From Escherichia phage JL1: 43,457 nucleotides of DNA. Each line of letters opens with the position of its first letter. Position 1 is the first letter of the stretch. Of this stretch, positions 3,218 to 39,880 are shown one piece after another. The notes under the pieces are model-generated. The model was not told the origin of the DNA, did no database searches, and saw nothing but the letters and a program-made list of their open reading frames with translations. The translations under genes were made by a program, and so were the position numbers. Location of the stretch: sequence record JX865427; one strand, given 5' to 3'.

Positions 3218-3388
3218 ATTTAATTAATTCCTGATTAGTGGACCGGGGACAATATACCACGGTCCGTATGGCGGCGGGCTATATCAATTCGCAAATAACC
3301 ATGCCGATAAACGCCGCGGTGGTCCAGATCGCTAATACCCAAATATCTTTACGTGCCATCTTGATTACTCCTCTCGTTGATTGGTTGC

Positions 3389-3418
3389 AGTATGGCCTCT
3401 ATGTTGGTTGCGAGTCAA
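3389..3418 (-). promoter_or_regulatory. sigma70-like promoter candidate (TTGACT-18-CATACT) for the phosphoesterase/terminase operon
   Basis: Read on minus strand directly downstream of the terminator at 3427-3448; contains two GCAACCAA motif copies. Confidence 0.4.
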
Positions 3419-5619: not shown

Positions 5620-5885
5620 TTGCTCAGTCTCCAGTGTTTGCCTACCCGCTCAACGGCGGGCTTCCGGCGTAATGTAATACGTATGCCGATTGGTTGCAAG
5701 GATGTTTTTATGGCAAGTCCATGCTCCCTGGCGAACTGGTGCAGGTAGCGGGTCTGCGTTAATGGCTTCACATCGTCGCGATAGCTCCAGAACACAGAAT
5801 CTCCCTCAACCGCATTCTGCGCCCATATTCGAATGCAATGCAGCGGAATATGCCATGAAAGCTGTTTAGCTAGTCTGCGGCCCAT
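5616..5885 (-). CDS. hypothetical protein
   Basis: 89-aa ORF; AAGGGA RBS upstream of ATG at 5885. Confidence 0.45.
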   Translation of the reverse strand: MGRRLAKQLSWHIPLHCIRIWAQNAVEGDSVFWSYRDDVKPLTQTRYLHQFAREHGLAIKTSLQPIGIRITLRRKPAVERVGKHWRLSK

Positions 5886-6397: not shown

Positions 6398-6424
6398 GTT
6401 CCGCCCTCCTGTTGGTGTGCAACC

Positions 6425-6453
6425 AATATAGCAGGGTGCCGGGGTGGATGCAA
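6425..6453 (-). promoter_or_regulatory. sigma70-like promoter TTGCAT-17-TATATT
   Basis: Read on minus strand; -35 embedded in ATTGGTTGCAT, second ATTGGTTGCA copy immediately after -10; ~20 nt upstream of RBS/ATG at 6397. Confidence 0.55.
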
Positions 6454-6612
6454 CCAATATTAATCACGCGCATGAAAAAGTTGATCGCTATCTGCTGTGA
6501 CTGCAAATTGCATTTTTCGCCCCACGTTCTGCATCTTGCATTGGTTGCCTAGTTCAGCGACGACCGCAATCCGCAACATGCTGCCGTATATTTTGCAATC
6601 CCGGATTTTATG

Positions 6613-6783: not shown

Positions 6784-6876
6784 TTTTATTGCATAACTAT
6801 GCATTATATTCACACTACACGGCAACCAATGCGACCAGCTAAAAGCACACAAAATGGCAACCAATGCGCGCAAAAT

Positions 6877-9481: not shown

Positions 9482-9505
9482 TGCTCTGCCCTCAGTTGGT
9501 TAATG

Positions 9506-9541
9506 ACCAACGAAACTACACCTAAAACCGCAAGGTGTCAA
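9506..9541 (-). promoter_or_regulatory. promoter TTGACA-17-TAGTTT with near-palindromic operator gttggttaatgaccaac (9495-9511)
   Basis: Read on minus strand upstream of the HTH regulator; 8-1-8 inverted repeat with one mismatch overlaps -10/TSS. Confidence 0.45.
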
Positions 9542-9658: not shown

Positions 9659-9687
9659 GTTGACTCCCTTCTGCAACCAATCTAATA
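9659..9687 (+). promoter_or_regulatory. strong sigma70-like promoter TTGACT-17-TAATAT for the rightward operon
   Basis: Near-consensus hexamers with T-rich upstream tract; TGCAACCAAT motif fills the spacer. Confidence 0.6.
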
Positions 9688-9884
9688 TTCACTCCGTCGA
9701 CAGGATGCAGGACGCAAACTGGAGAGGGGCAACGCAGGGGCCGGATCGAAGTGTCAGGATTCCCAACCGTGATTATATAACCAGGTCCACTACCCGAAAG
9801 GGAGAACGCGTAACCTGGCTCTATGTTAAGGCCACCGACGAAGTTTACTGCCGACACCTAAACTTAACCAATCGGAGATATACC

Positions 9885-10427: not shown

Positions 10428-10433
10428 TATTAT

Positions 10434-10462
10434 CCGGCCCGCTAATCTGCGGGCCTCTTTTT
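10434..10462 (+). terminator. rho-independent terminator
   Basis: Stem ccggcccgc / gcgggcc followed by TCTTTTT. Confidence 0.6.
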
Positions 10463-10475
10463 AGAGGACGAGACA

Positions 10476-10727
10476 ATGGCACGCTTCACGCTAATCGAGG
10501 CGGTGGATTCCCGCGACCAGCGCCCGTACTATTGGTTATTCGAACGCATCGGCAGCTTTCAATCGCGCGTTGCTGTAATTGATAAACGCCGCAACACCCC
10601 CGCGCAAATTAAGCGCACCACCTTTACTAATCCCGACTTTTATATTTGGGCGGATTCCAATCTGGAGTATGTTCGTTTCGCAGTTGCATCCGAAGCAAAA
10701 ACAATTGACCGCTGGGAGACAAAATAA
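10476..10727 (+). CDS. hypothetical protein
   Basis: 83-aa ORF with GAGGA RBS. Confidence 0.5.
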   Translation: MARFTLIEAVDSRDQRPYYWLFERIGSFQSRVAVIDKRRNTPAQIKRTTFTNPDFYIWADSNLEYVRFAVASEAKTIDRWETK

Positions 10728-10916
10728 ATGGCTATATTCTTTGTTTTATTTCGTTGCCGTATTACCGGCGATGAGCAACCGGAAATCGTTATGAATCAGA
10801 ACTGGAATTGCTGCTGGACTCAAGCCAGAGGACTGGCGGCTACCATGAACGAAGCCGCGAAGCGGGCTGGGGTTAAACATGAATATTACATTGCTCAGTT
10901 TTCAAGGGTGGAATAA
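10728..10916 (+). CDS. hypothetical protein
   Basis: 62-aa ORF; ATG directly after upstream stop, GGGAGA RBS; stop overlaps the next start. Confidence 0.4.
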   Translation: MAIFFVLFRCRITGDEQPEIVMNQNWNCCWTQARGLAATMNEAAKRAGVKHEYYIAQFSRVE

Positions 10917-12346
10917 TGGCGATTAAACCAAAACGTAAAACGCAATCCGGTAGCAATACGGAACACTCATTACTTGGTCCATCCGGTGCTAAAAAATGGA
11001 TGGGTTGCCCTGCCGCCCTGGTGGTGGAAAAAGATATCCCGAACGAATCCGGGCAAGCCGCGATTAACGGTACGAGTATGCACACCGTATCTGAGGTGGT
11101 GCTAAACCGCATTATCGCCGGTGAGAAGCTGATAACCGCGAAGACGTATAAAGGGTGCTACGTCGAGAACGAAGGCAAGGGGCCAGTAAAGGCACACCCT
11201 AAAGCCCCGAAAGGCGGCGTACTGGTCAACGACGACATGGTGAAACAGTGCAACGCGTACATCGACCACTGGCGACCGCTCCTCGAAGTGGCGGAGTTTG
11301 TCCAGCTTGAGATGCGCGCCGATCTGACCCGCGTCCTTCACTCGGGCTTCGAGATCGACGGCAACAGGGTTAAGACGTTCGGTACTGCCGATATGGTCAT
11401 GGTCATGAAAAAGACCGACGGCACGTACATGCTGATTGTTGGCGACCTGAAGACCGGGCGGCATAAGGTCGAGGCGAAAGAAAACAAACAGCTTATGTTG
11501 TACGCGCTCGGCCTGCTGCGCAAGCTGCAAACCATGTACGACATTACGACCGTGCGCCTGGTCATCTTCCAGCCGTATTGCGGCGGGGCGTCAGAGTGGG
11601 ATATTTCTGTAGAAGCACTGGAGATATTCGCGAAGTTTGCATCCAAGCGCGCTATCGCCGCACTGGAAGCGTACGCCCGAGGCAAAAAGGGACTCACCCG
11701 CGCCGACTTCCGACCGAGCGTTGATGCGTGCCAGTGGTGCAGATTTGCGGATCAGTGTAGCGCCAGGGCGAAGGCCGCAATCGATACGATGACACCACCA
11801 ACGGCAACCGACGAAGACCTGGGCGACGACGTGAGTATCGCTACAGAGGAGGAATGCGCCAACCATGACCGCAATATGGCCCGCGAAGCCCGGAAGGCGG
11901 CACGACGTGCGAAGCGTGGTACGAAGGAATCCACACCAGGCGCTATGAGCGCTGCGGAACTGCGCAAGGCTTATGAAGGCCTGGACGCAATGCGCCAGCA
12001 CATCAAGGCTATCGAGTCCGCGGTATTCAAGGCGGTCATGGCGGGCGATGGCGAATCGCTGGGCCTCAAGATGGTTGCCGGTAAGGAAGGGATCCGTAAG
12101 TGGGCGGACGAGAGCGAAGTGATTGAAATCTTCACGAAGGCCCGGATCAAGCGCGATGTGATGTACAAAGAAACATTGCTCAGCCCGACAGATGCCGAGA
12201 AGGTACTGAAGGACGAAAAACCGAAAGTGTGGGCGAAGCTGTGTGCTAAAATCACACGCGCACCCGCTAAACCGGTGTTAGCACCTATCGACGACCCGCG
12301 CCCCGCGTGGTCGGAGGCCACTGACGAGGACTTAAGCAATGAATAA
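10916..12346 (+). CDS. Cas4/RecB-like PD-(D/E)xK nuclease (DUF2800-type)
   Basis: 476 aa; N-terminal Cys (WMGCPA), nuclease motif IVGDLKTGRHK, C-terminal Cys cluster CQWCRFADQC. Confidence 0.7.
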   Translation: MAIKPKRKTQSGSNTEHSLLGPSGAKKWMGCPAALVVEKDIPNESGQAAINGTSMHTVSEVVLNRIIAGEKLITAKTYKGCYVENEGKGPVKAHPKAPKGGVLVNDDMVKQCNAYIDHWRPLLEVAEFVQLEMRADLTRVLHSGFEIDGNRVKTFGTADMVMVMKKTDGTYMLIVGDLKTGRHKVEAKENKQLMLYALGLLRKLQTMYDITTVRLVIFQPYCGGASEWDISVEALEIFAKFASKRAIAALEAYARGKKGLTRADFRPSVDACQWCRFADQCSARAKAAIDTMTPPTATDEDLGDDVSIATEEECANHDRNMAREARKAARRAKRGTKESTPGAMSAAELRKAYEGLDAMRQHIKAIESAVFKAVMAGDGESLGLKMVAGKEGIRKWADESEVIEIFTKARIKRDVMYKETLLSPTDAEKVLKDEKPKVWAKLCAKITRAPAKPVLAPIDDPRPAWSEATDEDLSNE

Positions 12347-12581
12347 AGTATTTGCGATCTTATTGATGTTTTTGCTCGGCGCGCTGGGCTTTATCCTGCA
12401 TTGCGTGCACGGCGTGTTAATGGTGGCGTGGATGATTCGTCATCCGACCCGCTGGCTGGATGACGGTTATAGTGACGCTGCCGTCGACTGGGTGGCGAAG
12501 AACATCGACCGACCGCCGTTAAGCTGGATCGAGAACGCCACTAACTACGTGACCCGAAATCTTTTTAACGAAAATGCTTGA
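12339..12581 (+). CDS. small membrane protein (hypothetical)
   Basis: 80 aa with two hydrophobic helices. Confidence 0.45.
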   Translation: MNKVFAILLMFLLGALGFILHCVHGVLMVAWMIRHPTRWLDDGYSDAAVDWVAKNIDRPPLSWIENATNYVTRNLFNENA

Positions 12582-12606
12582 CCGCTTAGGTGCAACCAAG
12601 TAGATT
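12578..12606 (+). promoter_or_regulatory. promoter TTGACC-17-TAGATT
   Basis: TGCAACCAAG motif in the spacer abutting the -10; precedes the DUF2815 gene. Confidence 0.5.
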
Positions 12607-12671
12607 AACAACCAAGCCGAACGGGGTGGCTCACAATAACCCCGATACATGTGAAAATGAGGAATTGGAAA

Positions 12672-13400
12672 ATGGCTAAAGTCAACCTGAAAAATGTGCG
12701 CGTATGTTTCCTTAAAATTTGGGAACGCGATACCCCTAAACAGGATGGTCAAAAACCGGCATACCGTGCAGTGATTCTTCTGGATAAAGAAGATCCGCAG
12801 GTGGACAAAGTGGAAGCGGCAGCGCGCGCAGTGCTCACCGACAAGCTGAAATCCGAGAAGAATGCTGATAAGTGGATGGACCGCCACTACGCCCTGGATT
12901 CTAAGGAATGCGCAGTTCGCGACGGTGACGAGCGCGACGAAGTAACCGAAGAATTCGAAGGCATGTTGTACATCAATGCCAAATCGTTCAAACAGCCGAT
13001 CATTCAAACGTCACTCGGCGAGAAGCAGACGGAACAAGGTCTGACCGTAGAAGGCGACGAGATCGAAGGCCAGGAGATCTACTCCGGTTGTTATTGCAAC
13101 GTGTCACTCGATATCTGGGCGTGGAACAATACCAACGGCAAGGGACTCGGTGCTGGTCTTTTGGGTCTGCGCTTCCGCGATGATGGTGAATCCTTCGGCG
13201 GTGGCGGTTCTTCTTGCTCCGACGAAGACCTGGACAACGATGACGAAGATGAAAGCCCGCGCAAGTCCAAAAAGTCAAAACGTCGTGATGACGATGACGA
13301 AGACGACAAGCCGCGCAAGTCCAAAAAGTCCAAGCGCCGCGATGACGAAGATGAGGACGACGACGAAGACGAAGCGCCACGTAAACGTCGCCGCCGTTAA
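12672..13400 (+). CDS. DUF2815-type putative ssDNA-binding protein
   Basis: N-terminus MAKVNLKNVRVCF; lies between the DUF2800 nuclease and Pol A; C-terminal tandem charged repeats; GAGGA RBS. Confidence 0.65.
   Translation: MAKVNLKNVRVCFLKIWERDTPKQDGQKPAYRAVILLDKEDPQVDKVEAAARAVLTDKLKSEKNADKWMDRHYALDSKECAVRDGDERDEVTEEFEGMLYINAKSFKQPIIQTSLGEKQTEQGLTVEGDEIEGQEIYSGCYCNVSLDIWAWNNTNGKGLGAGLLGLRFRDDGESFGGGGSSCSDEDLDNDDEDESPRKSKKSKRRDDDDEDDKPRKSKKSKRRDDEDEDDDEDEAPRKRRRR
13253..13350 (+). repeat. tandem ~54-bp coding repeat (PRKSKKSKRRDD-acidic) in the DUF2815 C-terminus
   Basis: Two near-identical units ccgcgcaagtccaaaaagtc...gatgacga. Confidence 0.7.
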
Positions 13401-13418
13401 GGGCAAAGCCCACTATTC

Positions 13419-13443
13419 AAGCCCGCTTAATGCGGGCTTTTTA
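13419..13443 (+). terminator. rho-independent terminator
   Basis: Stem gcccgc / gcgggc with loop ttaat followed by TTTTT. Confidence 0.6.
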
Positions 13444-13458
13444 ATAGGACAATGAAAA

Positions 13459-13629
13459 ATGCGTATTAAAGCCAGCGAAGTAAAAGTCGGAATGCAAGTA
13501 TGGTCCAAAATGCTGGGCGAATATTTCACAGTTGCCGAGATTCGCAACAACGGCGAGGAGATTACCCTTTCCGACGGCATCTTCTCCGTGATCGGCAGTG
13601 CTGACGCCGTGGTGAGGATTAAGCAATGA
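13459..13629 (+). CDS. small hypothetical protein (56 aa)
   Basis: Manual translation MRIKASEVKVGMQVWSKMLGEYFTVAEIRNNGEE...; stop overlaps the Pol A start (ATGA). Confidence 0.35.
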   Translation: MRIKASEVKVGMQVWSKMLGEYFTVAEIRNNGEEITLSDGIFSVIGSADAVVRIKQ

Positions 13630-15917
13630 AAGACTTCGAACGCCTGTTTCTCGATACCGAGACATTTAGCGGGGTAGACCTGAAGAAAGTTGGCGCATAC
13701 GCCTACGCAGAGCACCCAACCACCGAGATTATGATTTGCACCTACGCCATCGACGAGGGCCGCGTGCAGACATGGGATTGCACCGAGTCCCCCACAATGC
13801 CGCGTGAACTGCGCAAGGCGCTCCGCCGGGTATCTCGCAAGAAAGCAAAAATCGTGATGGCTAACGGCCTCCTGTTTGACCGCCTGGTTATTCGCGAGAA
13901 GTGGGGCATTGACCTGCCGGTAGGCCAGATCGAAGACACCATGATTATGGCCTTCCGACACGCGCTGCCGGGGAGTCTCGACATGCAATGCCAGGTGCTG
14001 GGCGTTGACGCAGAACACGCGAAGGATAAGGCTGGCAAGGCGCTGATCAAACGCTTCTGTAAGCCAACCCCTAAGACCTACAAAATCCGCCGCTACACCC
14101 GCGAGACTCACCCTGAAGAATGGGCTAAATTCCTGCGCTATGCCGCGCTGGATATCATCGCGATGAGGGAAGTCTATTGGCGCATACCGGACTGGGGTAA
14201 TACGCCGAAGGAAGACGAAATCCTGCTTATTGACCAGTTGATTAACGACCGCGGCTTCTATGTGGACGTTGACCTGGCACGCGCTGCGATCAAAGCGGTA
14301 CAGGCGCATAAGGAAGAATTAAAGGAAGAAGCCTGGGAGCGCTTCGGCGGTAAGCTAACCGGCAATGACTTCCTGCCCGCGCTGCGCGACCTCGCGCCTG
14401 CGTTCACAATCCACAACGCGCAGAAATCCACGCTTAACGACCTGCTGGAAGATCCAGACTTCCCGGACGAAGGCAAAGCGCTTATCGAGATGCGCCTCGG
14501 TGCGTCATCCACGGCGTCGACTAAGTACAATCCGCTCGTTAATGGCCTATCCGCCGATGGTCGCCGCCGTGGGTGTCTTCAGTATGGCGGCGCAAAGCGC
14601 ACGCTACGCTGGGCCGGTAAAGGCTTCCAGCCGCAAAACCTGGCACGCGGCGAATATAGCGACGACCACGAAGGGAAGATTAAACGCCGTGAAGGCGAGA
14701 GCGACGTCGCTTTTTGGGTGCGGTCGCACATGCTCACCAACGGCATCAACTCCCTGTTACGTGGGACAGCGCACTGGGCGTATGACATATCGAAGCTAAC
14801 GGCCTCGACTGTCCGCGGGTGCATTATTCCGGCGAAGGGTAAGAAGTTTGTCGTAGCGGACTACTCCAACGTGGAAGGGCGTGGACTTGCCTGGATCGCT
14901 GGCGAGAAAACCGCGCTAATGGTGTTTAGGGCCGGTCGCGATATCTATTGTGAAACTGCCGGTAAGATGTTCGGCCTTGACCCAGAATACATTAAAGCCA
15001 ACCGCAAAGACTTACGCCAGATCGGTAAGGCGTGCGAATTGGGCCTGGGCTATGGTGGTGGCGTGGCGGCGTTCTTGCAGTTCGCTAAAAACCTGGGCCT
15101 CGACCTTTACGCGATGGCGGACGTCATGAAGGGCACATTTCCCGATCACATTTGGGCCGCGGCGAAACGGGGTTATGAGTACGCCCGCATTAACGAGGCG
15201 AAGCGCCCGCCGAAGCCTGGCAAGAAGGACGAGCGCCCAACTTACATACTGCCGAAAAACGTATGGCTTACATGTGATGCGATTAAACGTATGTGGCGCG
15301 AGGCTCACCCGAAGACGGTAGCATTTTGGGCCGAACTGGAAGACGCGGTGTTGTGCGCGATCCGCAATCCGGGCAAAGCGTACTGGGCTGGCGCGAACGT
15401 TCGCCCGGATGGTAAGAAAGCGCTCAAGATAGTCCGCACGAAGGCGAAGCATGACCCAACCTTCGACGAGGAGCGCGACGACCCGAACGCCGCGGGGTGG
15501 TGGTTGAAAATTGAGTTGCCGTCGGGGCGTATTATGAGTTACCCAGGCATTGCGCTGTCAGTGACGACCGAGATCGACGAAGATACCGGCAAGAAGCGCA
15601 CCAGCACCCGCATTAAATATCAGGGTGAGAATCAGACGACGCGCCAGTGGGGATTCCAGTACACCTACGGCGGCAAACTGACGGAAAACATCGTGCAGGC
15701 GCTGTGCCGCGATATCCTCGCATGGTCCATGCCGGGCGTTGAAGCTGCGGGGTATGAGATCGTACTGTCCGTACACGATGAACTGATAACCGAAGTGCCG
15801 GATACCGACGACTACACAACCGAGGAGTTGTGCGCGCTGATGTGCGACCTGCCTGTTTGGGCGAAAGGCTTCCCGCTTGCCGCGGAAGGCGACATCATGT
15901 ACAGGTACAGAAAATGA
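13626..15917 (+). CDS. DNA polymerase, family A, with 3'-5' exonuclease domain
   Basis: 763 aa; exo motif LFLDTETFS; polymerase motifs RQIGKACELGLGYGGG and VHDELITEV. Confidence 0.92.
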   Translation: MKDFERLFLDTETFSGVDLKKVGAYAYAEHPTTEIMICTYAIDEGRVQTWDCTESPTMPRELRKALRRVSRKKAKIVMANGLLFDRLVIREKWGIDLPVGQIEDTMIMAFRHALPGSLDMQCQVLGVDAEHAKDKAGKALIKRFCKPTPKTYKIRRYTRETHPEEWAKFLRYAALDIIAMREVYWRIPDWGNTPKEDEILLIDQLINDRGFYVDVDLARAAIKAVQAHKEELKEEAWERFGGKLTGNDFLPALRDLAPAFTIHNAQKSTLNDLLEDPDFPDEGKALIEMRLGASSTASTKYNPLVNGLSADGRRRGCLQYGGAKRTLRWAGKGFQPQNLARGEYSDDHEGKIKRREGESDVAFWVRSHMLTNGINSLLRGTAHWAYDISKLTASTVRGCIIPAKGKKFVVADYSNVEGRGLAWIAGEKTALMVFRAGRDIYCETAGKMFGLDPEYIKANRKDLRQIGKACELGLGYGGGVAAFLQFAKNLGLDLYAMADVMKGTFPDHIWAAAKRGYEYARINEAKRPPKPGKKDERPTYILPKNVWLTCDAIKRMWREAHPKTVAFWAELEDAVLCAIRNPGKAYWAGANVRPDGKKALKIVRTKAKHDPTFDEERDDPNAAGWWLKIELPSGRIMSYPGIALSVTTEIDEDTGKKRTSTRIKYQGENQTTRQWGFQYTYGGKLTENIVQALCRDILAWSMPGVEAAGYEIVLSVHDELITEVPDTDDYTTEELCALMCDLPVWAKGFPLAAEGDIMYRYRK

Positions 15918-16195
15918 TGACACCAGAAGGCAAGATTCAAAGTCACCTTATGAAGCTGGTGAAAGCCGTCGGCGGATTCTGCCGTAAAGTGGCATGGGAG
16001 GGGCGCGCAGGAGCGCCCGACCTGATAATCATAATCAACGGCAAGATAGTTTTCGTCGAAGTGAAGCGCCCCGGCGGCAAACCGAAGCCGCACCAGGTAC
16101 GAGAACATGAGCGAATGGCCCGCCGCGGTGCGGACGTTCGCGTCATCGACAACATAGACGACTGTGATTTATTGGTTGCTGAATTGGTCGCGTAG
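15914..16195 (+). CDS. VRR-NUC domain nuclease
   Basis: Motif GAPDLIIIINGKIVFVEVKRPGGKPKPHQ; overlaps the Pol A stop. Confidence 0.7.
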   Translation: MMTPEGKIQSHLMKLVKAVGGFCRKVAWEGRAGAPDLIIIINGKIVFVEVKRPGGKPKPHQVREHERMARRGADVRVIDNIDDCDLLVAELVA

Positions 16196-16235
16196 CAGTA
16201 TAGTGGGCCGGTTAGCCCTATCGAGGATTTTAGAA

Positions 16236-16409
16236 ATGGTTGAAGAAAAACGTTGTAGTAATTGCGGTTGTGTTAAACCGCTATCCCAGTTCCACAAATA
16301 CACCGGAAAGACGGCGCGTAGCCCAGACGGGTATCGGGCCGAGTGCAAATCGTGCCGAAATAAAAAAGAGCGTGAACGGCAGCGCCGCTACCGTGCCGCG
16401 CAAGCATAA
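16236..16409 (+). CDS. small zinc-ribbon protein (hypothetical)
   Basis: 57 aa with CxxC...CxxC and basic C-terminus; GAGGA RBS. Confidence 0.45.
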   Translation: MVEEKRCSNCGCVKPLSQFHKYTGKTARSPDGYRAECKSCRNKKERERQRRYRAAQA

Positions 16410-16411
16410 TT

Positions 16412-16437
16412 AATACGGCGGGCTTGTCCCGCCATTT
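16412..16437 (+). terminator. putative terminator/attenuator
   Basis: Stem ggcggg / cccgcc followed by ATTTTT. Confidence 0.4.
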
Positions 16438-16452
16438 TTGGGAGACATGACG

Positions 16453-16671
16453 ATGAAAGAACACTACCGACTAACCACACTGGGCGAATGCAAACCAGGC
16501 GATCGAGTATGGTTTATCGCGGGCATGAATAACCCGCTGCCGTTAACGGTGTGCTGGCAAAAATTTAAGAGCTTCCGGGCGACCGGCGTGCACATCGGAC
16601 ACGCCACCAACTACGACGCCACAAAAAGGAACTGGAACAGTGAGACAGAAGTCTGGAAAAAGGCGGAATAA
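16453..16671 (+). CDS. hypothetical protein
   Basis: GGAG RBS 8 nt upstream of ATG at 16453 (alternative ATG at 16447). Confidence 0.45.
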   Translation: MKEHYRLTTLGECKPGDRVWFIAGMNNPLPLTVCWQKFKSFRATGVHIGHATNYDATKRNWNSETEVWKKAE

Positions 16672-16675
16672 AGAT

Positions 16676-18100
16676 ATGGCACGATTCCGACGCCGCGAAT
16701 ATCAGAAGTTGATAACCGCGTTCATCCTCAAGCATAAGCGATGCAATATATGGGCGACAATGGGGTCGGGTAAAACTGGCGCGACCATGTGGGCGCTGAA
16801 TAAAATGTTCCAGACCGGCATCCTGTCCCACCAGGAGGACCGCGTACTGGTGCTGGCCCCTCTACGCGTTGCATCCGGCACATGGCCCCCGGAACAGGAA
16901 AAATGGCGCTTCCCCGCCTTGCTGGTAGTAGATGGCACTGGGTCGGAGAAGGACCGCATCGCTGCGCTTGAGAGCGACGCTAACGTGGTTTGTATTAACT
17001 ATGATGTAGTTGAGTGGCTCGTCGAGTATTGCGGCGACGAGTGGCCCTTTACGGTCGTGGTTGCCGATGAATCGACTAAGCTGAAAGGCTATCGAAGCAA
17101 GCAGGGAAGTAAGCGCGCCCGTGCGCTGGCAGCGATCGCACATAAGCACGTCAAGCGCTGGATTAACCTGACCGGCACACCCGCGCCAAACGGGCTGAAA
17201 GACCTATGGGGCCAGACGTGGTTTGTCGACGGGGGCGAACGCCTCGGCAGTAGTTATAAGGCATTCACGGATCGCTGGTTTATTAGCAAGCCTGTTAAGC
17301 CTGGCAGCTTCACTATGCAGCACGCCCCGCTTAAGAACTCCGAGAAAGAAATCCAACAACGCCTGTCCGACGTGTCGCTAACAGTTGACGCGGCTGAATA
17401 CTTCGGGTGTGACAAGCCAATCTACACGCCGGTTGTAGTGGACCTGCCGAAGAAAGCCCGCAAGATTTATGACCAGTTCGAAGCGGAGCTATTTGCGGAA
17501 CTGGAAAGCGGAACAGTGGAGGCGGCTAACGCTGCGTCGAAGACTATTAAGTGCCTTCAGCTTGCTTCCGGGGCAGTGTATAAAGTCGACGAAGACGGCG
17601 AGCGCACCGACGAATGGGTGAAAATCCACGACGCTAAACTGGACGCGCTGGAAAGTATCGTGGAGGAGTTGAACGGCGCACCGTTGCTCGTCGCATACCA
17701 ATATAAGCATGATCTGGCGCGTCTCAAGAAGAAATTCCCGCACGGAGTAGCGATGGGTAAGGGTACGCAAGGAAATAAGGATATGGAAGCGTGGAACAGG
17801 GGTGAGATCCCCATCATGTTCGCACACCCGGCATCGGCGGGTCACGGCCTTAACTTGCAGGATGGCGGACACCACCTTGCTATTTTTTCAGACACCTGGA
17901 ACTATGAGCACTTTGCGCAGATCGTGGAGCGTATCGGGCCAGTTCGCCAGATGCAAGCCGGACACCCTCGTCCAGTATTCGTCTACATTATCCAGGCGCG
18001 CGGCACGCTGGATGAACTGGTCGCCGAGCGTCGTGACAGTAAGCGAGACATTCAGGACGATTTAATGGAATACATGAAAGCTAAAAAGGCGCGCAAATGA
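16676..18100 (+). CDS. SNF2-family helicase
   Basis: Walker A MGSGKTGA, motif II VVADEST, SNF2 signature LTGTPAPNGLKDLW; start set at internal ATG (MARFRRR). Confidence 0.85.
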   Translation: MARFRRREYQKLITAFILKHKRCNIWATMGSGKTGATMWALNKMFQTGILSHQEDRVLVLAPLRVASGTWPPEQEKWRFPALLVVDGTGSEKDRIAALESDANVVCINYDVVEWLVEYCGDEWPFTVVVADESTKLKGYRSKQGSKRARALAAIAHKHVKRWINLTGTPAPNGLKDLWGQTWFVDGGERLGSSYKAFTDRWFISKPVKPGSFTMQHAPLKNSEKEIQQRLSDVSLTVDAAEYFGCDKPIYTPVVVDLPKKARKIYDQFEAELFAELESGTVEAANAASKTIKCLQLASGAVYKVDEDGERTDEWVKIHDAKLDALESIVEELNGAPLLVAYQYKHDLARLKKKFPHGVAMGKGTQGNKDMEAWNRGEIPIMFAHPASAGHGLNLQDGGHHLAIFSDTWNYEHFAQIVERIGPVRQMQAGHPRPVFVYIIQARGTLDELVAERRDSKRDIQDDLMEYMKAKKARK

Positions 18101-18792
18101 TTATCTGGTCATTATTTGACGGCAGCGGCTTGATGATTGAACGTGCTGCCGAGATGGGGCATAAGTGTTATTGCTTCAACTACTCCGAAGCCGATCACGG
18201 GTCGTACCTGGACTACCGGATTTATGGGCGCGGTATCCGATATCGTAATGAGTTTATCGATCTGGACTTCGTGGACCGCGCGATGAATGGTGATTTCGGC
18301 ACGCCGGATATCATTTATGCATTCCCGCCGTGTACGGATCTGGCGGTGAGTGGCGCGCCCGCTTTCCCGCGCAAACGCGCCCGCGACCCTGCCTTCCAGC
18401 TTAAGGCGGTGCGCACCGCGAAGATTGCAGCTTACCTGGGTGATTTCTTTGAAGTGCCGTATATGATTGAGAATCCGCGCAGCGTGCTCTCCACTCAATG
18501 GCGTAAGCCGGACCACTCGTTTGACCCGTGGGAGTATGGCGGATATCTGCCGGAGGGTGACGTACACCCGCTCTTCCCGGAATACATCAACGCCCGCGAT
18601 TCATATCCGAAGCTGACCTGCTTATGGACCGGCAACGGCTTCCGTATGCCAGAGAAAAAGCCGGTATTCGTTGAAAAAGGGTACTCGAAGCAGTATAGTC
18701 GCCTCGGAGGCAAATCTGCCCGCACCAAATTAATCAGGTCGCTCACCCCGCGCGGCTTCGCGATAGCGGTTAACGAGGAAAATTTAAAATGA
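18097..18792 (+). CDS. compact DNA (cytosine-5) methyltransferase-like protein
   Basis: 231 aa; motif I LFDGSG, motif IV FPPCTDLAVSG (Pro-Cys), motif VI ENP; very short region where a target-recognition domain would sit. Confidence 0.6.
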   Translation: MIIWSLFDGSGLMIERAAEMGHKCYCFNYSEADHGSYLDYRIYGRGIRYRNEFIDLDFVDRAMNGDFGTPDIIYAFPPCTDLAVSGAPAFPRKRARDPAFQLKAVRTAKIAAYLGDFFEVPYMIENPRSVLSTQWRKPDHSFDPWEYGGYLPEGDVHPLFPEYINARDSYPKLTCLWTGNGFRMPEKKPVFVEKGYSKQYSRLGGKSARTKLIRSLTPRGFAIAVNEENLK

Positions 18793-19112
18793 ATACTGCA
18801 TTCGACGCCATCGACTTTTCAGTGGCAATGACCAATCAGCTTTTTTCCTACGACAGCAAAACAGGCGTTATCCGCCTAAAGTCCACCGGCTGCAAGATTG
18901 GCAACCTCAATACTGCCGATGGCGGTACTCGTATCGAATGCAACGGCAAGACGCTGTCTGGCGCACGTGTGGCGTGGATTATTGAGACTGGCAATACAAT
19001 CCCCCCAGGCTTTGCCGTTGTGTGCCGTCAGCGTACGCCGGGCCATTACGGCAACCGGATCAGCAATCTTTATTTGGTAGACGTAGCGCGCGACCCAAAT
19101 TTTTATTCGTAA
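18789..19112 (+). CDS. HNH_3-like putative endonuclease/DNA-binding protein
   Basis: FSYDSKTGVIRLK, ARVAWIIETGNTIPPGF and GHYGNRISNLYLV resemble phage HNH_3/NUMOD-type proteins; catalytic residues uncertain. Confidence 0.45.
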   Translation: MNTAFDAIDFSVAMTNQLFSYDSKTGVIRLKSTGCKIGNLNTADGGTRIECNGKTLSGARVAWIIETGNTIPPGFAVVCRQRTPGHYGNRISNLYLVDVARDPNFYS

Positions 19113-19117
19113 ATTGG

Positions 19118-19146
19118 TTGCATAACCGTATTGGTTGCATTATATT
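19118..19146 (+). promoter_or_regulatory. promoter TTGCAT-17-TATATT with tandem ATTGGTTGCAT motifs
   Basis: Two direct copies of ATTGGTTGCAT, one forming the -35 and one abutting the -10. Confidence 0.55.
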
Positions 19147-19193
19147 GAGGGTGTCCAGTTTGGACGCCCTTTTTAATACCCGGAGACAACACG

Positions 19194-19529
19194 ATGAAAA
19201 TTTTACAAGAAGAGAAAAATTACTGGGCCGCACAATGCCTCGAAGCCCGCGAGCAGGCCGAACGAGCTAACGCGTTGGCGGACACCAACCAGGCGCTATA
19301 TGAAGGAGAGAAGAAAGTGCGCCAGGAGCTAGAGGAGCGCTTCGAACTGCTGTTCGAATTGATGGGGATTATGCAGCGCACCGGATACACCACCAGCGTT
19401 GCACTAAACCGCATCACTGCCGACGGGCTGCGTGAGCATTGCAAACGGGCCGAGGAGTACGTGCGTCCGAAGGGCCGCCAGTCTAAGATTGCCCTGTACG
19501 CGATAGACCCAGATCATGCAGAAGAGTGA
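19194..19529 (+). CDS. hypothetical protein (coiled-coil-like)
   Basis: 111-aa charged helical sequence. Confidence 0.5.
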   Translation: MKILQEEKNYWAAQCLEAREQAERANALADTNQALYEGEKKVRQELEERFELLFELMGIMQRTGYTTSVALNRITADGLREHCKRAEEYVRPKGRQSKIALYAIDPDHAEE

Positions 19530-20001
19530 GCAAAAAGATAGCTGGCGCACGCCGCCAGCTTTATTCAAACCGCTTCGTCGGAAGTACCGATTCCGTTACG
19601 ACATGGCGGCGAGCGACGCCAACCATCTGCTACCTCGTTACTTCACGGCAGAGCACAGCGCGCTTGAGGTGGACTGGTCAGAGTTGAAAGGGTGGAAGTG
19701 GTGCAACCCGCCGTATTCCGATCCGCTGCCGTGGGTCGAGTGCGCAGCGCATGGACGTCGGACCGTCATGCTACTAAATCAGGACACGTCGACAAAGTGG
19801 GCACGGTTGGCCCGGAAGACTGCAAACCTGATAATTCTTCTGGACTGGCGTATCAGATTTATACACGCTGTAACCGGTGAAGTCGGGCCGAGCAATAACA
19901 AGTGCCAGCAATTGATAATCTTTGACGAAGCGCCACCCACCGGCAGCGCACAAATTGAAATAATGAGCGAGGGAGAACTACGTGAATATCTTAATCGTTG
20001 A
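19516..20001 (+). CDS. phage-type DNA N6-adenine methyltransferase (Dam-like)
   Basis: N-terminal WRTPPALF and catalytic NPPY motif (WKWCNPPYSD). Confidence 0.85.
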   Translation: MQKSEQKDSWRTPPALFKPLRRKYRFRYDMAASDANHLLPRYFTAEHSALEVDWSELKGWKWCNPPYSDPLPWVECAAHGRRTVMLLNQDTSTKWARLARKTANLIILLDWRIRFIHAVTGEVGPSNNKCQQLIIFDEAPPTGSAQIEIMSEGELREYLNR

Positions 20002-20206
20002 TCGCGACCCTGCGGTCGTAGACCAAATGCAAAAAGACTACTGCATAGACCCGCGACGCAATCGTGTGGTGCGCGCGTCTCGTCCCGAATACATCTTGGG
20101 CCTTGACCTCACCGGTTGGCTTGTCATGACTCAGCGTTGCCATTTCGTGTGCAACTCCTTTACCGCGCGAAGCGCCCGTTACACCCTTATTGAGAGCTTA
20201 AAATGA
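19982..20206 (+). CDS. hypothetical protein (non-ATG start)
   Basis: 74-aa ORF with apparent GTG start, no clear RBS. Confidence 0.3.
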   Translation: MNILIVDRDPAVVDQMQKDYCIDPRRNRVVRASRPEYILGLDLTGWLVMTQRCHFVCNSFTARSARYTLIESLK

Positions 20207-20673
20207 AATTACTGATTTGTGATCTGGATGGCGTTATTAATGGATCAAGCGATGCGCGCGCCGACCTGGTGCCGGGGATAAAAACGAAATCCACCTTTTG
20301 GGCGAAGTGGCACAAAGCGCACGTCCGCGAAGACCTGAACATGGATATGCTGCCGCTACTGCGCATGTATAAAGAGCAAGGCTTCGAGATCGCGTATCTG
20401 ACAAACCGGCAGCGCGAATGCTGGGACACCACCGCCGAGCAATTGGAGGTCTTCCCGGTCGGCCGGTTGTTTATGCGCCACATGCTGGACGACACCCCGC
20501 CGCCAGAGTTTAAGGCGTGCGCCGTGTTCAAAATGGTCTGCTACGCGGACGTGTCTGAACTGGTCATCATTGAAGATTGCGAGAAGAACATCGCGGCAAT
20601 TCGTCGGGCGTGTGGTGATTTGGTCCCGAAAATTTACGCAATAAACGTTGCAAAATTCACTTGCAACCAATAG
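20203..20673 (+). CDS. HAD-superfamily phosphatase-like protein
   Basis: Motif I DLDGV at N-terminus; downstream LTNR and acidic motifs. Confidence 0.6.
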   Translation: MKLLICDLDGVINGSSDARADLVPGIKTKSTFWAKWHKAHVREDLNMDMLPLLRMYKEQGFEIAYLTNRQRECWDTTAEQLEVFPVGRLFMRHMLDDTPPPEFKACAVFKMVCYADVSELVIIEDCEKNIAAIRRACGDLVPKIYAINVAKFTCNQ

Positions 20674-20690
20674 GTTGGTTGCACTATAGT
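20661..20690 (+). promoter_or_regulatory. promoter TTGCAA-18-TATAGT over an inverted TGCAACCAA repeat
   Basis: Palindrome tgcaaccaa-tagg-ttggttgca spans -35 and spacer. Confidence 0.5.
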
Positions 20691-20735
20691 AAACGTGTCG
20701 GGGGCAATACAGCCCCCACTAAAAAGGGTAATACT

Positions 20736-21290
20736 GTGAAAGCATACGAATACTGCAAAAACGCCGCCACCACTATGGAACAGCGCGGGAAAGAAAACGG
20801 CTATGACAACGCGAAAGAAGAACGCAGCGCTAAACAAATCGCTGCCGTGTTTAACGCGCTTACCGGGCGAGACCTGTCCGAGCAAGAAGCCTGGACCTTC
20901 CTGATCTGCCTGAAGCTGGTGCGCCAGCACCGTAAGCACCAGGAAGATAATATCGTGGACCTGGTAGCGTATGCCGCCCTGCTGGGAGAGTCTTACATGA
21001 CCGTTCATGATGAGATTCAGATCGATACAACGGCGGCACAATTCGACAGCCTCAAAGGCCTGTCCATGCGTCTCGACGGTGAGATTAATGCGTATAACAG
21101 CGCAATTCGCGTTGCAGAAGATACGGTGGCCTCGTTTGGCAAGACGGTGAAGGCCCACGATTTTGGGGTTGTAGCGCAAGACGTCCAGCCTATGGTAGTG
21201 CTCACGGGCGAAGACGGATCGAAAATCTGCATGACGCAGGAAGATTTCCGTAACATGGAAAAAACACTTGTGACTGGCGCACTTAAATAA
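20736..21290 (+). CDS. hypothetical protein
   Basis: GTG at 20736 has an AAGGG RBS; the ORF-track ATG at 20661 lies inside the promoter. Confidence 0.5.
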   Translation: MKAYEYCKNAATTMEQRGKENGYDNAKEERSAKQIAAVFNALTGRDLSEQEAWTFLICLKLVRQHRKHQEDNIVDLVAYAALLGESYMTVHDEIQIDTTAAQFDSLKGLSMRLDGEINAYNSAIRVAEDTVASFGKTVKAHDFGVVAQDVQPMVVLTGEDGSKICMTQEDFRNMEKTLVTGALK

Positions 21291-21331
21291 TTTAATCGCG
21301 GGCTTCGGCCCGCATCAATGAGGGATTCACA

Positions 21332-21907
21332 ATGTACGGCGAATATGAAATAACCGGTAAACAATTCCACCTGGCGGCAATGATAGCAAGCATCGAGTTT
21401 GAACAGTGGCGCTTAAAGTCTGACGCGTGCAAACAAAGCCGCCTGGTCGGTGTGCTTGGTGAGATGTTTGCAGGCATGTACCTCGAAGGGCAGGCGGGCG
21501 GGCGTAGCTGTATCCCGCAAGGTTTGCTAATGCGTACCGGCCTGTTTAGCGCTAACACAATCGACCGCGGCGATATTATCATGGTCGGCAAGCGCAAGGT
21601 AAAATCCGGCCCCGACTTCCGAGAACATATGATTGATGCCGTCTGGACCTACGAGGTTAAGGCAACCAGCAGCATCCGTCGCGGACTGGTCGAGGCACGT
21701 TGCGCTCGCGAATACCTTACCCGTCGCGTTGCCGGTGTTATCCTGGTGGGCGTATCGTTCGGGCAACATAGCGCGCATGGCGTGATTGAAGATATTGCGG
21801 AGCCATACGTGATAGTGAACGACTGGCCCCTGGTGGAAGTGGATGGTAAGGAATACTACGAAAGCCCGCTGGTTCGGCGCAAAATGGACTGGGAGAACTC
21901 AAACTAA
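21332..21907 (+). CDS. hypothetical protein
   Basis: 191-aa ORF, last gene of the plus-strand arm, followed by the convergent terminator. Confidence 0.5.
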   Translation: MYGEYEITGKQFHLAAMIASIEFEQWRLKSDACKQSRLVGVLGEMFAGMYLEGQAGGRSCIPQGLLMRTGLFSANTIDRGDIIMVGKRKVKSGPDFREHMIDAVWTYEVKATSSIRRGLVEARCAREYLTRRVAGVILVGVSFGQHSAHGVIEDIAEPYVIVNDWPLVEVDGKEYYESPLVRRKMDWENSN

Positions 21908-21937: not shown

Positions 21938-23734
21938 TTATTTACCTTCCAGCTTCTCCACTTTATGCAACAGGTGGACGAAGGCGGCACACAGGTCCAT
22001 CAACAGCACGTTACTGTCCAGAGACAGCACATCGTCGGTATACCCGATCTCCTTGCGGTCGACTACAACCTCGTTCCCTTCCTCGTCAACCCCCTTGACG
22101 TCCTCATAAATGGCGTAACCCGGCAGCAAATGCACGTATTCCGGGTCAATCCTTGCCAGGTCCTGCGCGATAAGGCCGTATCGCTGTACGTCAGACTCCT
22201 TATACTTGAACATCGCCGGAAGCCATTGTCGAACTCGGTTGTAACTTTCCTCGCCGTCCGTGTATTTGATTTCTTTTTTAAGGTCGCGGTCTGATAGCGG
22301 CGCTTTCTGGAACTCGTTAACCGACGGGTTGCCGCTGTTACCACTAATAAGCCTGCCGTCCGGTAGGAATCGGAATAGCGCCTCAGTAAAGCCGTCCTTC
22401 CACACATGGACGCGGTAGTCTGATAAGTGGGCATCCCCGGCCCTTACCAGGCCCGCGCGCGTCCAATCCGTGTACCACTTATGCATCGTCTGCCCAACCC
22501 AGCTATCAATCCCGAAAGACGCATTGGATATAATCAAACCGTTACGCTCGACATCATTGAAGACTAGCGATTCACCACCGTTCAGGCGCAACGTGCCAAG
22601 TTTTACTTTATTGTTATCGCCCAACCCGAAATTAGAGCGCGCCTTCGCTGCCGTTGTTGCCGCAGTGCCGCCTTTTTCGATCGGAACGGTGTTTTCAGTG
22701 GCAACAGACCCAAGACCAAGATTAGAGCGCGCCTTCGCTGCCGTTGTTGCCGCAGTGCCGCCTTTTTCGATCGGAACGGTGTTTTCCGTGGCAACAGACC
22801 CAAGACCAAGATTAGAGCGCGCAGCGGCTACCGTCGTCGCGGCGGTTCCCCCTTTCTTGATCGGAACGGTGTTTTCAGTGGCAACAGACCCAAGACCAAG
22901 ATTAGAGCGTGCCGCCGATTTATCAGTTAGCCCCGCCAGGTTGCCGGTTTTGGTTAGCAGATTATCGGCGTTTACGCTTTGTGCCCATTCTTTGGCCTGA
23001 TCGCGAAATCCCTGCGCGGCAGCGCTGGCGGCCTGCGCGTCAGTCTTCGCCGTATTAGCTTTGTCACGAATAACGCCGGTTTCAGTCTTAATCTGGTTCG
23101 TCTGCGTCTTGATGGCCTGCGTATCCGCCTTAATCTTGTCCGTCTGCGTCTTGATGGTATTGGTGGCGTCGTGGACCGCCTGCGTGTCGCTGAGGATTGC
23201 CAGGCTCTGCACCTTGTATCCTTCGGCCTCATTGCGAAATCCTTCGGCCTCATTGCGAAATCCTTGCGCTGCTGCTTCAGACGCGGCGGCTTGTTGTTGC
23301 AGGTTGCGCATCTCAACTGGGTCAACTTCCTTCAGCAATTGCGACAGATAGCCCCATGACATACCCTGCATAACTTGCCCGTTCGGCAGCGTTACCGCGA
23401 TTTCTTCCTCGTCTCCGAAGATTGCGCGCCAGTTGTTTTCGTCCGCGAGCATCAAGCGCAACGCTTTCTGCGCCTGTACTGTTACGCCCATCGTTGCCAG
23501 CGACATGGTATCGCGCTTAACGCCATCCCACGCGAGGCCCGTTGCCGTGGGGCCGTCGAACGGCAGCACAAGCGTAAGCGCGGTGTCGCTTTCTACGGAC
23601 GAGATCGCAACAGTGTAAGGAACTTGCCCCACTACCAGCGATAAGAAGTCGCCTGCTTTAAACGCGGTAAACGTCGTGCCTACCCCGACAACCGCCTTGC
23701 TGTTATTCTTTACGGATAGTGTACCCGCTGCCAT
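21938..23734 (-). CDS. side tail fiber with C-terminal intramolecular chaperone (peptidase S74-like) domain
   Basis: 598 aa; three 30-aa repeats ...GGTAATTAAKARSNLGLGSVATENTVPIEK; C-terminal SDRDLKKEI... region typical of self-cleaving fiber chaperone domains. Confidence 0.8.
   Translation of the reverse strand: MAAGTLSVKNNSKAVVGVGTTFTAFKAGDFLSLVVGQVPYTVAISSVESDTALTLVLPFDGPTATGLAWDGVKRDTMSLATMGVTVQAQKALRLMLADENNWRAIFGDEEEIAVTLPNGQVMQGMSWGYLSQLLKEVDPVEMRNLQQQAAASEAAAQGFRNEAEGFRNEAEGYKVQSLAILSDTQAVHDATNTIKTQTDKIKADTQAIKTQTNQIKTETGVIRDKANTAKTDAQAASAAAQGFRDQAKEWAQSVNADNLLTKTGNLAGLTDKSAARSNLGLGSVATENTVPIKKGGTAATTVAAARSNLGLGSVATENTVPIEKGGTAATTAAKARSNLGLGSVATENTVPIEKGGTAATTAAKARSNFGLGDNNKVKLGTLRLNGGESLVFNDVERNGLIISNASFGIDSWVGQTMHKWYTDWTRAGLVRAGDAHLSDYRVHVWKDGFTEALFRFLPDGRLISGNSGNPSVNEFQKAPLSDRDLKKEIKYTDGEESYNRVRQWLPAMFKYKESDVQRYGLIAQDLARIDPEYVHLLPGYAIYEDVKGVDEEGNEVVVDRKEIGYTDDVLSLDSNVLLMDLCAAFVHLLHKVEKLEGK
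22621..22910. repeat. three tandem 90-bp repeats inside the tail fiber gene
   Basis: Units 22631-22720 and 22721-22810 differ at ~1 nt; third unit diverged centrally. Confidence 0.8.
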
Positions 23735-23755
23735 AGCTGAATCCTCTTAAATTGG

Positions 23756-23790
23756 TTGCAATCTTGGTCGAGCGGTGCAATACTAAAACT
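23756..23790 (+). promoter_or_regulatory. promoter candidate (TTGCAA-17-AATACT) for the lipoprotein cassette
   Basis: ATTGGTTGCAA motif forms the -35; weak -10. Confidence 0.35.
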
Positions 23791-39740: not shown

Positions 39741-39880
39741 GCTATCCCCCTGGGATTGTGGCAAAGCGGGCCACCCGCTTGACTTCACGCCTTAATATTA
39801 TCAGTGATAAAAATAATCGCAAAATTCGCTTGCGCTGCTGGAATTGGTTGCACACCAACATAGATATGAAGGAAAACAAA

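Follow-up and report, generated by a model that had tools for sequence, protein, structure and literature searches.

A 10-bp word, TGCAACCAAT/ATTGGTTGCA, recurs in the DNA of Escherichia phage JL1 (record JX865427). In the window, i.e., the whole 43,457-bp stretch analyzed here, about 19 copies are present, and nearly every copy in non-coding DNA overlaps a sigma-70-like promoter facing downstream genes, as located by a consensus scan. The word is enriched, is under purifying selection and co-occurs exclusively with a family of small helix-turn-helix (HTH) proteins, represented in the window by a 109-residue protein, HTH-109. We consider it probable that the word is the operator of HTH-109 and has a role in transcription. 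Binding, the identity of the reader (i.e., the protein recognizing the word) and the direction of regulation are the parts of this proposal that we infer from sequence.

The window covers nearly the whole genome of an E. coli Dhillonvirus, a siphovirus of the HK578/SSL-2009a/SO-1 type, and is 91-93% identical to MT884014.1, PQ295796.1 and similar records. Studies of phage defence and phage therapy now make wide use of Dhillonviruses (HK578, SO-1, SECphi18, BASEL isolates), whose transcription programme is undescribed. In literature searches, the word, the promoters and transcriptomes (5' ends) of Dhillonviruses and the function of HTH-109 were nowhere described, and the Dhillonvirus genome papers available to read do not mention promoters. 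The present analysis yields a map of about eleven predicted promoters, a 10-bp candidate operator and a named candidate master regulator. It also corrects the recurrent mis-annotation of HTH-109 as a transposase, which has already led to speculation about recombination or lysogeny. If true, the proposal would offer engineering handles, e.g., tunable promoters and a single knock-out target for deregulation. The proposed circuit is undescribed, yet conceptually ordinary, and it would overturn nothing because its type is familiar.

Enrichment of the word in non-coding DNA

The word has 10 exact matches on the two strands of the window against 0.13 expected, a count reached in none of 100 shuffles, and TGCAACCAAT has 17 matches with at most one mismatch against 3.0 expected. 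In an unbiased k-mer scan with a third-order Markov model, TGCAACCAAT ranks first for enrichment among the 10-mers of the window (P ~1e-17). The same word is also the top 10-mer in phage Ioannina (81% identity) and in Sodalis phage SO-1. An alignment of all copies defines the functional unit as (A/G)TTGGTTGC(A/C), in which the TTGGTTGC core is invariant; outside the 10 bp of the word, this alignment contains no sequence information.

Non-coding DNA makes up 7.6% of the window and contains 11 of the 14 exact 9-mer cores (binomial P = 1.4e-10). The remaining three coincide with the final codons of a gene or with a candidate promoter inside a gene. A preliminary description, made from the letters of this DNA, had reported a recurrent and almost entirely intergenic motif, and these counts bear out both its enrichment over background and its placement. 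There is a copy at every coordinate which that description listed: 3380 (with a two-mismatch partner at 3403), 6418, 6449, 6540, 6821, 6856, 9672, 12591 (partner at 12607), 19113, 19130, the inverted pair 20662/20674, 23751 and 39843. It had overlooked an exact intragenic copy at 5689, which lies on a candidate promoter, and the pair 16171/16183, located within the final codons of the VRR-NUC gene.

Eight one-mismatch core matches inside genes (1276, 6982, 11000, 23159, 29207, 35690, 37375 and 39679) have no promoter nearby and are chance background. In the structural half of the genome, promoter-like sites are below chance and the motif is absent except at the opposite-strand cassette at 39843.

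Two other kinds of explanation were rejected. A methyltransferase target or Chi-like sequence is ruled out because the cores concentrate in non-coding DNA and show no strand bias (11 vs 8 copies). An explanation at the RNA level was also dismissed: the window contains no Rfam family and no tRNA, and many copies lie in untranscribed spacers. In a scan of viral contigs for close 9-mer pairs, most matches were unrelated tandem repeats of 27 nt in coding sequence or chance occurrences, which made the scan uninformative.

Position of the copies on predicted promoters

The sites, with the predicted promoter elements around them, are as follows.

P_D, 19113..19139, plus strand: direct ATTGGTTGCA copies at 19113-19122 and 19130-19139, 17 bp apart (the interval of the preliminary description); the first gives the -35 TTGCAT (19118-19123), the second fills the spacer and stops 1 nt short of the -10 TATATT (19141-19146); predicted to drive the genes at 19194-20673.
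P_R, 9672..9681, plus strand, rightward early promoter: TTGACT (9660-9665), 17-nt spacer filled by TGCAACCAAT, TAATAT (9683-9688).
P_C, 12591..12616, plus strand, ahead of the genes for SSB and DNA polymerase: TTGACC (12578-12583), 17-nt spacer, TAGATT (12601-12606); TGCAACCAAG abuts the -10 and AACAACCAAG (12607-12616) directly follows it.
P_K, 16171..16192, plus strand, within the 3' end of the VRR-NUC gene: ATTGGTTGCT supplies the -35 TTGCTG (16176-16181); a variant copy, ATTGGTCGCG, lies 12 bp downstream; -10 TATAGT (16199-16204).
P_E, 20662..20683, plus strand: inverted pair TGCAACCAAT-AG-GTTGGTTGCA; the first copy gives the -35 TTGCAA (20661-20666), and the -10 TATAGT (20685-20690) lies 1 nt past the second.
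P_F, 23751..23760, plus strand, serving plus-strand lipoprotein and membrane-protein genes: ATTGGTTGCA gives the -35 TTGCAA (23756-23761), with the -10 AATACT (23779-23784); this copy is also 17 nt upstream of the start codon of the minus-strand tail-fibre gene.
Promoter of the opposite-strand 'moron' genes 39881-40459 in the structural block, 39843..39852, plus strand: a single copy, ATTGGTTGCACACCAACA.
P_H, 6418..6458, minus strand, serving small genes and the lysis block: the copy at 6449-6458 supplies the -35 TTGCAT (6448-6453); the second (6418-6427) overlaps the -10 TATATT (6425-6430), as TATATTGGTTGCA.
P_X, 5689..5698, minus strand, candidate internal promoter in gene 5616-5885: TTGCAA (5694-5699, from the motif), 17-nt spacer, TACATT (5671-5676).
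P_A, 3380..3412, minus strand, after a terminator at 3427-3448: TTGACT (3413-3418), 18-nt spacer, CATACT (3389-3394); CGCAACCAAC (3403-3412) abuts the -35 and TGCAACCAAT (3380-3389) directly follows the -10; it heads the phosphoesterase, terminase and structural genes.
P_L, 9495..9511, minus strand, the promoter of the HTH-109 gene itself: TTGACA (9536-9541), 17-nt spacer, TAGTTT (9513-9518), then a degenerate copy, GTTGGTCATTAACCAAC.
Region-B flank, 6540..6549, plus strand: ATTGGTTGCC, on the promoter-proximal flank of a putative origin block; no predicted promoter.
Second region-B site, 6821-6830 and 6856-6865, minus strand: two direct ATTGGTTGCC copies, 35 bp apart, directly after the stop codon of the helicase-primase gene and upstream of a TATAAT (6807-6812) that points into an array of GCGGGACA.

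Eleven loci score 8-9/12 on TTGACA/TATAAT-like hexamers, 16-18 bp apart and facing downstream genes, with the TTG and A2/T6 positions, and the predicted hexamers are conserved in relatives. With respect to the -10, the copies occupy eight offsets in all: -28, -16, -11 and +3 in forward orientation, and -22, -17, -10/-9 and +6 in reverse. At four promoters (19113, 6458, 16171 and 23751), ATTGGTTGCA begins 28 nt before the -10, and its TTGCA(T/A/G) serves as the -35 with a 17-nt spacer. Forward copies at 19130 and 20674 begin 11 nt before the -10, and the one at 16183 begins 16 nt before it. Copies in reverse orientation provide the -35 TTGCAA (20662, 5698), fill the spacers of TTGACT-17-TAATAT (9672), TTGACC-17-TAGATT (12591) and TTGACT-18-CATACT (3412), or come directly after the -10 (12607, 3389). 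The region-B copies at 6540 and 6856 are near no predicted promoter. Among close pairs, 25 of 28 are direct repeats, spaced 9-37 bp apart.

The use of both orientations, eight offsets and variable direct pairs argues for an operator rather than an element recognized by the polymerase. The preliminary description had often placed the word on the -35 or in the spacer next to the -10, at times as tandem or inverted pairs, which holds for the consensus hexamers of the predicted promoters. It had left two readings side by side. The regulator site overlapping promoters of the host RNA polymerase is supported. The phage-specific promoter signature is not favored, given the variable orientation and offset, the copies without a predicted promoter (6540, 6856) and the copies past the -10 (3380, 12607 and, in three other motif-bearing phages, L008, L010 and L025, the promoter of the HTH gene).

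At 39843, the five other Dhillonviruses compared have a tandem pair with TATATT in between. In the window, a 14-nt deletion has removed the first copy and the TATATT -10, and the promoter of the 39881-40459 cassette may be weakened in this isolate.

Several features of the leaders were also observed. A G/C hairpin followed by TTTTT (19149-19174, plus strand) comes right after the -10 of P_D, in its own leader and before the ribosome-binding site, and similar 5'-proximal hairpins lie downstream of P_C, P_E and P_K. They may be stabilizers, attenuators or terminators of upstream read-through. Back-to-back with P_L is a promoter-like plus-strand site (TTGAAA, 17-nt spacer, tgAATAAT; 9554-9648), followed just upstream of P_R by a hairpin and T11 terminator (9613-9648). 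An RNA of about 60 nt could be made from 9554-9648; it would contain a near-copy of the motif, AUUGGUUAGC, and has no Rfam match. The 195-nt leader of P_R (9690-9884) is 94-99% conserved in most Dhillonviruses, i.e., more than the genome average, and is absent in Ioannina. A 52-nt piece of it (9721-9772) is 92% identical to unannotated DNA of T1-like (~50-kb) phages, with Enterobacter phage Arya and Serratia phage MQ-4 giving weaker matches. Structure prediction for the leader RNA (9695-9884) shows nothing unusual (z = 0.36).

Conservation and selection

Conservation was compared across six Dhillonvirus genomes by aligning 12 site regions. Each of the five other genomes carries 17-21 syntenic copies. 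Column identity is 96% in the motif and 83% in the flanks, and 87% and 56% of the columns, respectively, are invariant (P = 5e-20). The copies are essentially invariant, unlike the drifting gaps within pairs and the non-coding bases around them; the ATTGG half of the word is as invariant as the TTGCA half.

Individual sites follow this pattern. Both copies of P_D are invariant across the six genomes and the 7-nt gap between them drifts. P_E is 100% conserved, as are the motif columns of P_H, and the P_R copy is conserved in all Dhillonviruses. At P_X, the motif and the 30 nt downstream are invariant and the upstream codons vary. The site at 6821..6865 has one to three copies among Dhillonviruses, and Ioannina has a complete two-copy promoter of the P_D type at the P_F site.

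Some arrangements are kept over ~30% DNA divergence, e.g., the 12-bp pair of P_K with its TTGGTCGC variant, the 17-bp pair of P_D and the copies in the P_R spacer. The P_D arrangement is identical in L008, and both L008 and L010 retain the P_K pair including the TTGGTCGC variant. These two loci have two overlapping copies in the P_R spacer, and their equivalent of the P_A promoter also bears the motif.

Co-occurrence with HTH-109

The gene of HTH-109 (9152-9481, minus strand, 109 aa) is the first of the leftward early operon and lies directly upstream of the helicase-primase gene. We collected 40 viral-contig loci (IMG/VR) via the helicase-primase. HTH-109 homologues are encoded in 16 of them, and each of these has 9-12 TTGGTTGC cores, apart from one truncated locus with 3; the expected number is 0.4-0.9. 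The other 24 have a helicase-primase (33-45% identical), no HTH-109 and 0-2 cores, and in 23 of these 24 motif-negative relatives the slot of HTH-109 holds an unrelated HTH of the Cro/XRE type. The 9-mer ATTGGTTGC is the top 9-mer in L008 (10 vs 0.16 expected), L010 (8 vs 0.29) and L172 (11 vs 0.18). L008 and L010 are at ~72% DNA identity, L172 has the most remote member of the HTH-109 family, and the copies are similarly placed.

In a scan of the proteins of the window, two matched a profile of presence in all motif-positive divergent phages and absence from all 26 motif-negative genomes or loci: HTH-109, at 81-82% identity in the motif-positive divergent phages, and a 99-aa protein (4703-5002). 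The latter is a membrane protein and was rejected as the reader despite its phyletic profile. The promoter of the HTH gene itself also has the word. In L008, L010 and L025, a canonical GCAACCAAT is located 9 nt after its -10, and all Dhillonviruses have a conserved degenerate TTAACCAAC there, within TTGGT-N5-ACCAA.

The preliminary description had named two possible binders. Co-occurrence strongly supports one of them, the small HTH regulator at 9152-9481. The other, the N-terminal domain of the HTH-phosphoesterase, is excluded by its distribution, since this protein occurs in motif-free phage Golestan (76% identity) and is absent from motif-bearing L008, L010, L025 and Serratia phage Tsm2. 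The helicase-primase as sole reader is disfavored, as 24 loci encode it without the motif. AAA_25 is its sole Pfam domain, and no solved relative covers its C-terminal region.

The HTH-109 family

Residues 65-105 of HTH-109 match the Pfam families HTH_23 (30.8 bits, cutoff 24.6), Sigma70_r4_2 (28.1 bits, cutoff 25.7) and HTH_28 (28.5 bits, above cutoff). The GerE profile scores below the Pfam cutoff, and sigma region 2 is absent. An AlphaFold2 model (pLDDT 88.9) contains a short helix, a 59-residue helix and a C-terminal three-helix HTH; the end of the 59-residue helix is helix one of the HTH. The long helix probably dimerizes. The HTH belongs to the LuxR/GerE/sigma-70 region 4 superfamily and superposes at ~1 Å on the HTHs of LuxR, GerE, NarL, SdiA, sigma (sigma-H) and serine recombinases. 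A fold search gave no structural neighbor of the whole protein, and sequence and fold searches for a solved or characterized relative gave only generic HTH or coiled-coil matches.

The family comprises 24 clusters at 90% identity, with three full-length clusters among 1.84 billion 50%-identity representatives, and is restricted to Dhillonvirus-like phages. The C-terminal 60 residues are almost invariant. The N-terminal 45 are freely replaced between phages, which suggests that this end is a modular or fast-evolving partner-binding part.

Databases label HTH-109 as a transposase (PHROG 9366), a resolvase or 'nuclease inhibitor gamma'. We reject the transposase assignment: the protein has 109 residues, consists of a long helix and an HTH alone, and lacks a DDE, serine or tyrosine recombinase domain. 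No mobile-element ends are present at its gene, whose syntenic position is conserved in all genomes compared. Another protein, Tsm2 gp19 (109 aa, C-terminal HTH), was considered as a remote analogue and rejected (hhalign probability 9.7%; homologues in motif-negative phages).

Origin-like blocks

A 400-bp non-coding block after the helicase-primase gene corresponds to the annotated 'region B' of SO-1 and has three ATTGGTTGCC copies at its flanks. Arrays of GCGGGACA(A/G) are located in this block (7 copies, 6668-6763) and in the counterpart of SO-1's 'region A' (11 copies, 34012-34262), which lies between the tape-measure and tail-chaperone genes. ATTGGTTGC is absent from region A. Beside each array is an exact 51-nt duplicate (6613-6663 and 33957-34007) that contains a long G/C palindrome. 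After the helicase-primase gene, L008 has four copies of GCGGGACA and L010 has none.

The GCGGGACA arrays are better iteron candidates than the promoter word, which is not clustered as an array in the origin blocks in the way of iterons. Because the arrays are made of GCGGGACA and region A lacks ATTGGTTGC, the promoter word does not appear to be primarily an origin repeat, although the regulator may be linked to the origin.

Proposed circuit and alternative explanations

In the circuit that we propose, HTH-109 would be made early, from the leftward promoter P_L. It would recognize single units of 10 bp, asymmetric and mostly arranged as two direct copies at a spacing of 9-37 bp. These units are placed over the -35, the spacer, the -10 or the +1 at about eleven predicted promoters of the sigma-70 type, its own included. 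Under its predicted control would be the rightward early/replication operon with its internal promoters, the operon of small genes and lysis genes, the packaging/structural promoter and two opposite-strand accessory cassettes. Binding would mainly exclude RNA polymerase (occlusion), resulting in a global autoregulated throttle or timing circuit, which the region-B copies may link to replication. Occlusion is predicted because the sites cover core elements of promoters that have good hexamers and optimal 17-18 bp spacers. Pure repression takes up about half of the weight that we place on HTH-109 and its operator; a dual repressor/activator or sigma-region-4-surrogate role is also possible, because four copies lie exactly on the -35 and the HTH is of the sigma-region-4 type.

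Several points weigh against this proposal. The promoters are predicted from consensus sequences. Because the motif-positive phages all belong to a single clade, the co-occurrence amounts to about one evolutionary contrast and is compatible with another clade-specific factor as the reader. The HK578-type protein (49% identical) and the L172 protein have altered recognition helices and both pair with an unchanged DNA word, so co-variation of the recognition helix with the word gives no signal either way; the helix reads STIKNWIYR in L172 vs STVRSWVRN, with the S-T-(V/I)-(R/K)-x-W core kept. Tsm2 (L007) has a four-copy core cluster and no detected HTH-109 homologue. Its four same-orientation GCAACCAA copies lie within 125 bp (9373-9494) in the 3'-terminal part of the helicase-primase gene and fall into two different frames; 11 loci with helicase-primases as related as that of Tsm2 have no such copies. 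The four copies located where sigma region 4 would bind are equally compatible with activation, and for a virulent phage it is not an obvious strategy that an early protein should repress the structural-gene promoter.

Activation is the core of one rival explanation, in which the word would be a phage-specific -35-type element and HTH-109, as a surrogate or MotA-like activator, would re-target the host polymerase and switch the promoters on. HTH-109 does score above the Sigma70_r4_2 cutoff and its HTH does superpose on sigma and LuxR HTHs, but the Pfam cross-matches to Sigma70_r4_2, HTH_23 and HTH_28 are generic to this HTH class. Four promoters share the offset of 28 nt, with TTGCA(T/A) on the -35 and a 17-nt spacer, and otherwise match the -35 at only 3/6; however, other copies are reversed, in the spacer, on the -10 or past it, and those at 6540 and 6856 have no promoter at all. 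P_R, P_C and P_A already own a near-consensus TTGAC(T/C) -35, with the motif in the spacer. Pfam and PHROG comparisons of 30 early or small proteins revealed no AsiA-, MotA- or sigma-region-2-like protein. We regard a pure activator as unlikely. We also see little probability in a mixed form, in which HTH-109 would be a free-standing sigma-region-4 surrogate that activates P_D, P_H, P_K and P_F through their -35 copies, represses P_R, P_C, P_A and P_L through copies in the spacer, over the -10 or at +1, and couples this switch to the firing of an origin via the copies around region B. If true, a single protein would bring about the early-to-middle switch by sigma appropriation, and no MotA/AsiA homologues would be involved. 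An improbable, replication-based explanation is that the copies are origin-recognition boxes (DnaA-box-like) for an initiator, either HTH-109 in the role of an origin-binding or helicase-loading protein or the helicase-primase itself, and that the promoter copies are secondary and couple replication with transcription. It would account for the two to four copies invariably found on either side of the non-coding block that follows the helicase-primase gene, for the HTH-109 gene immediately upstream of the latter, for the position of the Tsm2 cluster, and for single asymmetric 9-mers in both orientations, as in DnaA boxes. However, about 15 of 19 copies are at dispersed promoters and 3 of about 19 flank region B, the origin-like blocks have an iteron family of their own, GCGGGACA, with no ATTGGTTGC in region A, and none of the 24 helicase-primase loci without HTH-109 has the word.

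The word might also have no dedicated reader and be a by-product of promoter-cassette duplication or of a preference for TTGCA as a -35-like sequence. TTGCA within the word can act as a weak -35, and a module ATTGGTTGCA-n-TATAnT is common to several promoters. However, the sites share no homology beyond the 10-mer, the ATTGG half, useless as a -35, is equally invariant, copies in spacers, past the -10 or reversed cannot serve as a -35, and the word is kept at ~72% genome identity while spacers turn over; this makes the explanation very unlikely. We give the least credence to a host transcription-factor site exploited by the phage, e.g., for a CytR-like reader of GTTGCA(T/A). The 3' half of the word, GTTGCAT(T), resembles the CytR octamer GTTGCATT (general knowledge), but the conserved ATTGG half lies outside a CytR site, Golestan (Kagunavirus) and the 24 IMG/VR loci, all without HTH-109, are not enriched, and the word is retained in the Sodalis phage SO-1.

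Other features of the window

The gene layout, assigned from annotated relatives, is as follows.

1-9481, minus strand: terminase, phosphoesterase, lysis genes, small genes, helicase-primase and the 109-aa HTH gene.
9482-9884: divergent control region.
9885-21907, plus strand: replication and nucleotide-metabolism operon.
Remainder: tail-fibre and structural genes.

The first gene of the rightward early operon (9885-10427, plus strand) has a product of 180 residues that contains long runs of Asp/Glu and of Lys. This protein is PHROG 3127, has no Pfam match and is kept in 22 of the 24 motif-negative relatives too. It could be a DNA mimic or an anti-restriction candidate.

The minus-strand tail-fibre gene contains three exact 90-nt tandem repeats (30-aa units) at 22704-22907, which explain the enriched 12-mers CCAAGATTAGAG and ACAGACCCAAGA. 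The 8-9-mers ACGGCAGC(G)/GCTGCCGT and GTTGCCGT are strongly over-represented throughout the window, and also in L004, L006 and L007, with unrelated Golestan and Tsm2 included. The excess is probably coding or codon-pair bias and no site.

Comparison with known systems

Features of the known systems below are general knowledge, apart from the HTH superposition and the findings on the window. No homology of HTH-109 to proteins of these systems was found. The closest likeness in function is to several phage and plasmid regulators.

As with C1 of phage P1, one regulator would use non-palindromic operators at more than 12 dispersed sites, single or paired, overlapping the promoters of many separate operons and its own control region. 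P1, however, is a temperate phage that uses C1 for immunity, and the operator of C1 has 17 bp, whereas the present genus is regarded as virulent, the word has 10 bp and the 109-aa protein has no detectable similarity to C1. The stoperators of mycobacteriophage L5 are also short asymmetric sites in short intergenic regions (~20-30 copies), bound by a monomeric HTH repressor, gp71. They have one orientation to transcription and mainly block elongation, whereas the copies here occur in both (11 vs 8) and on core promoter elements.

P2 Cox and 186 Apl are small (~90-aa) HTH proteins that cover a promoter by binding 9-bp boxes arranged as direct repeats. At least two boxes are usually needed, and 25 of 28 close pairs are direct here. 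Cox boxes, however, are confined to one switch region and also act in excision; the present copies are genome-wide, with 9-37 bp spacing and no integrase or excision context. KorA and KorB of IncP plasmids belong to a plasmid system with palindromic operators and unrelated proteins. They are nonetheless small autoregulated repressors with operators over the -10/-35 of most operons, allowing a burst on entry that is then throttled.

In the MotA box of T4, as at four promoters here, a phage word replaces the -35 and the host-type -10 is kept. However, MotA boxes have one orientation and position and need AsiA; the present copies show no fixed position or orientation relative to the -10 (eight offsets, both orientations), and no MotA or AsiA homologue was seen among the 30 early or small proteins compared.

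Finally, HTH-109 differs from the NarL/GerE/LuxR proteins in that it has no receiver or ligand domain and its HTH sits on a 59-residue helix. Its HTH, however, matches theirs at ~1 Å, with 28-38% identity to the domains of SdiA, LiaR, GerE, NarL and TraR, and NarL heptamers, like the copies described here, lie single or paired, in either orientation, around promoters.

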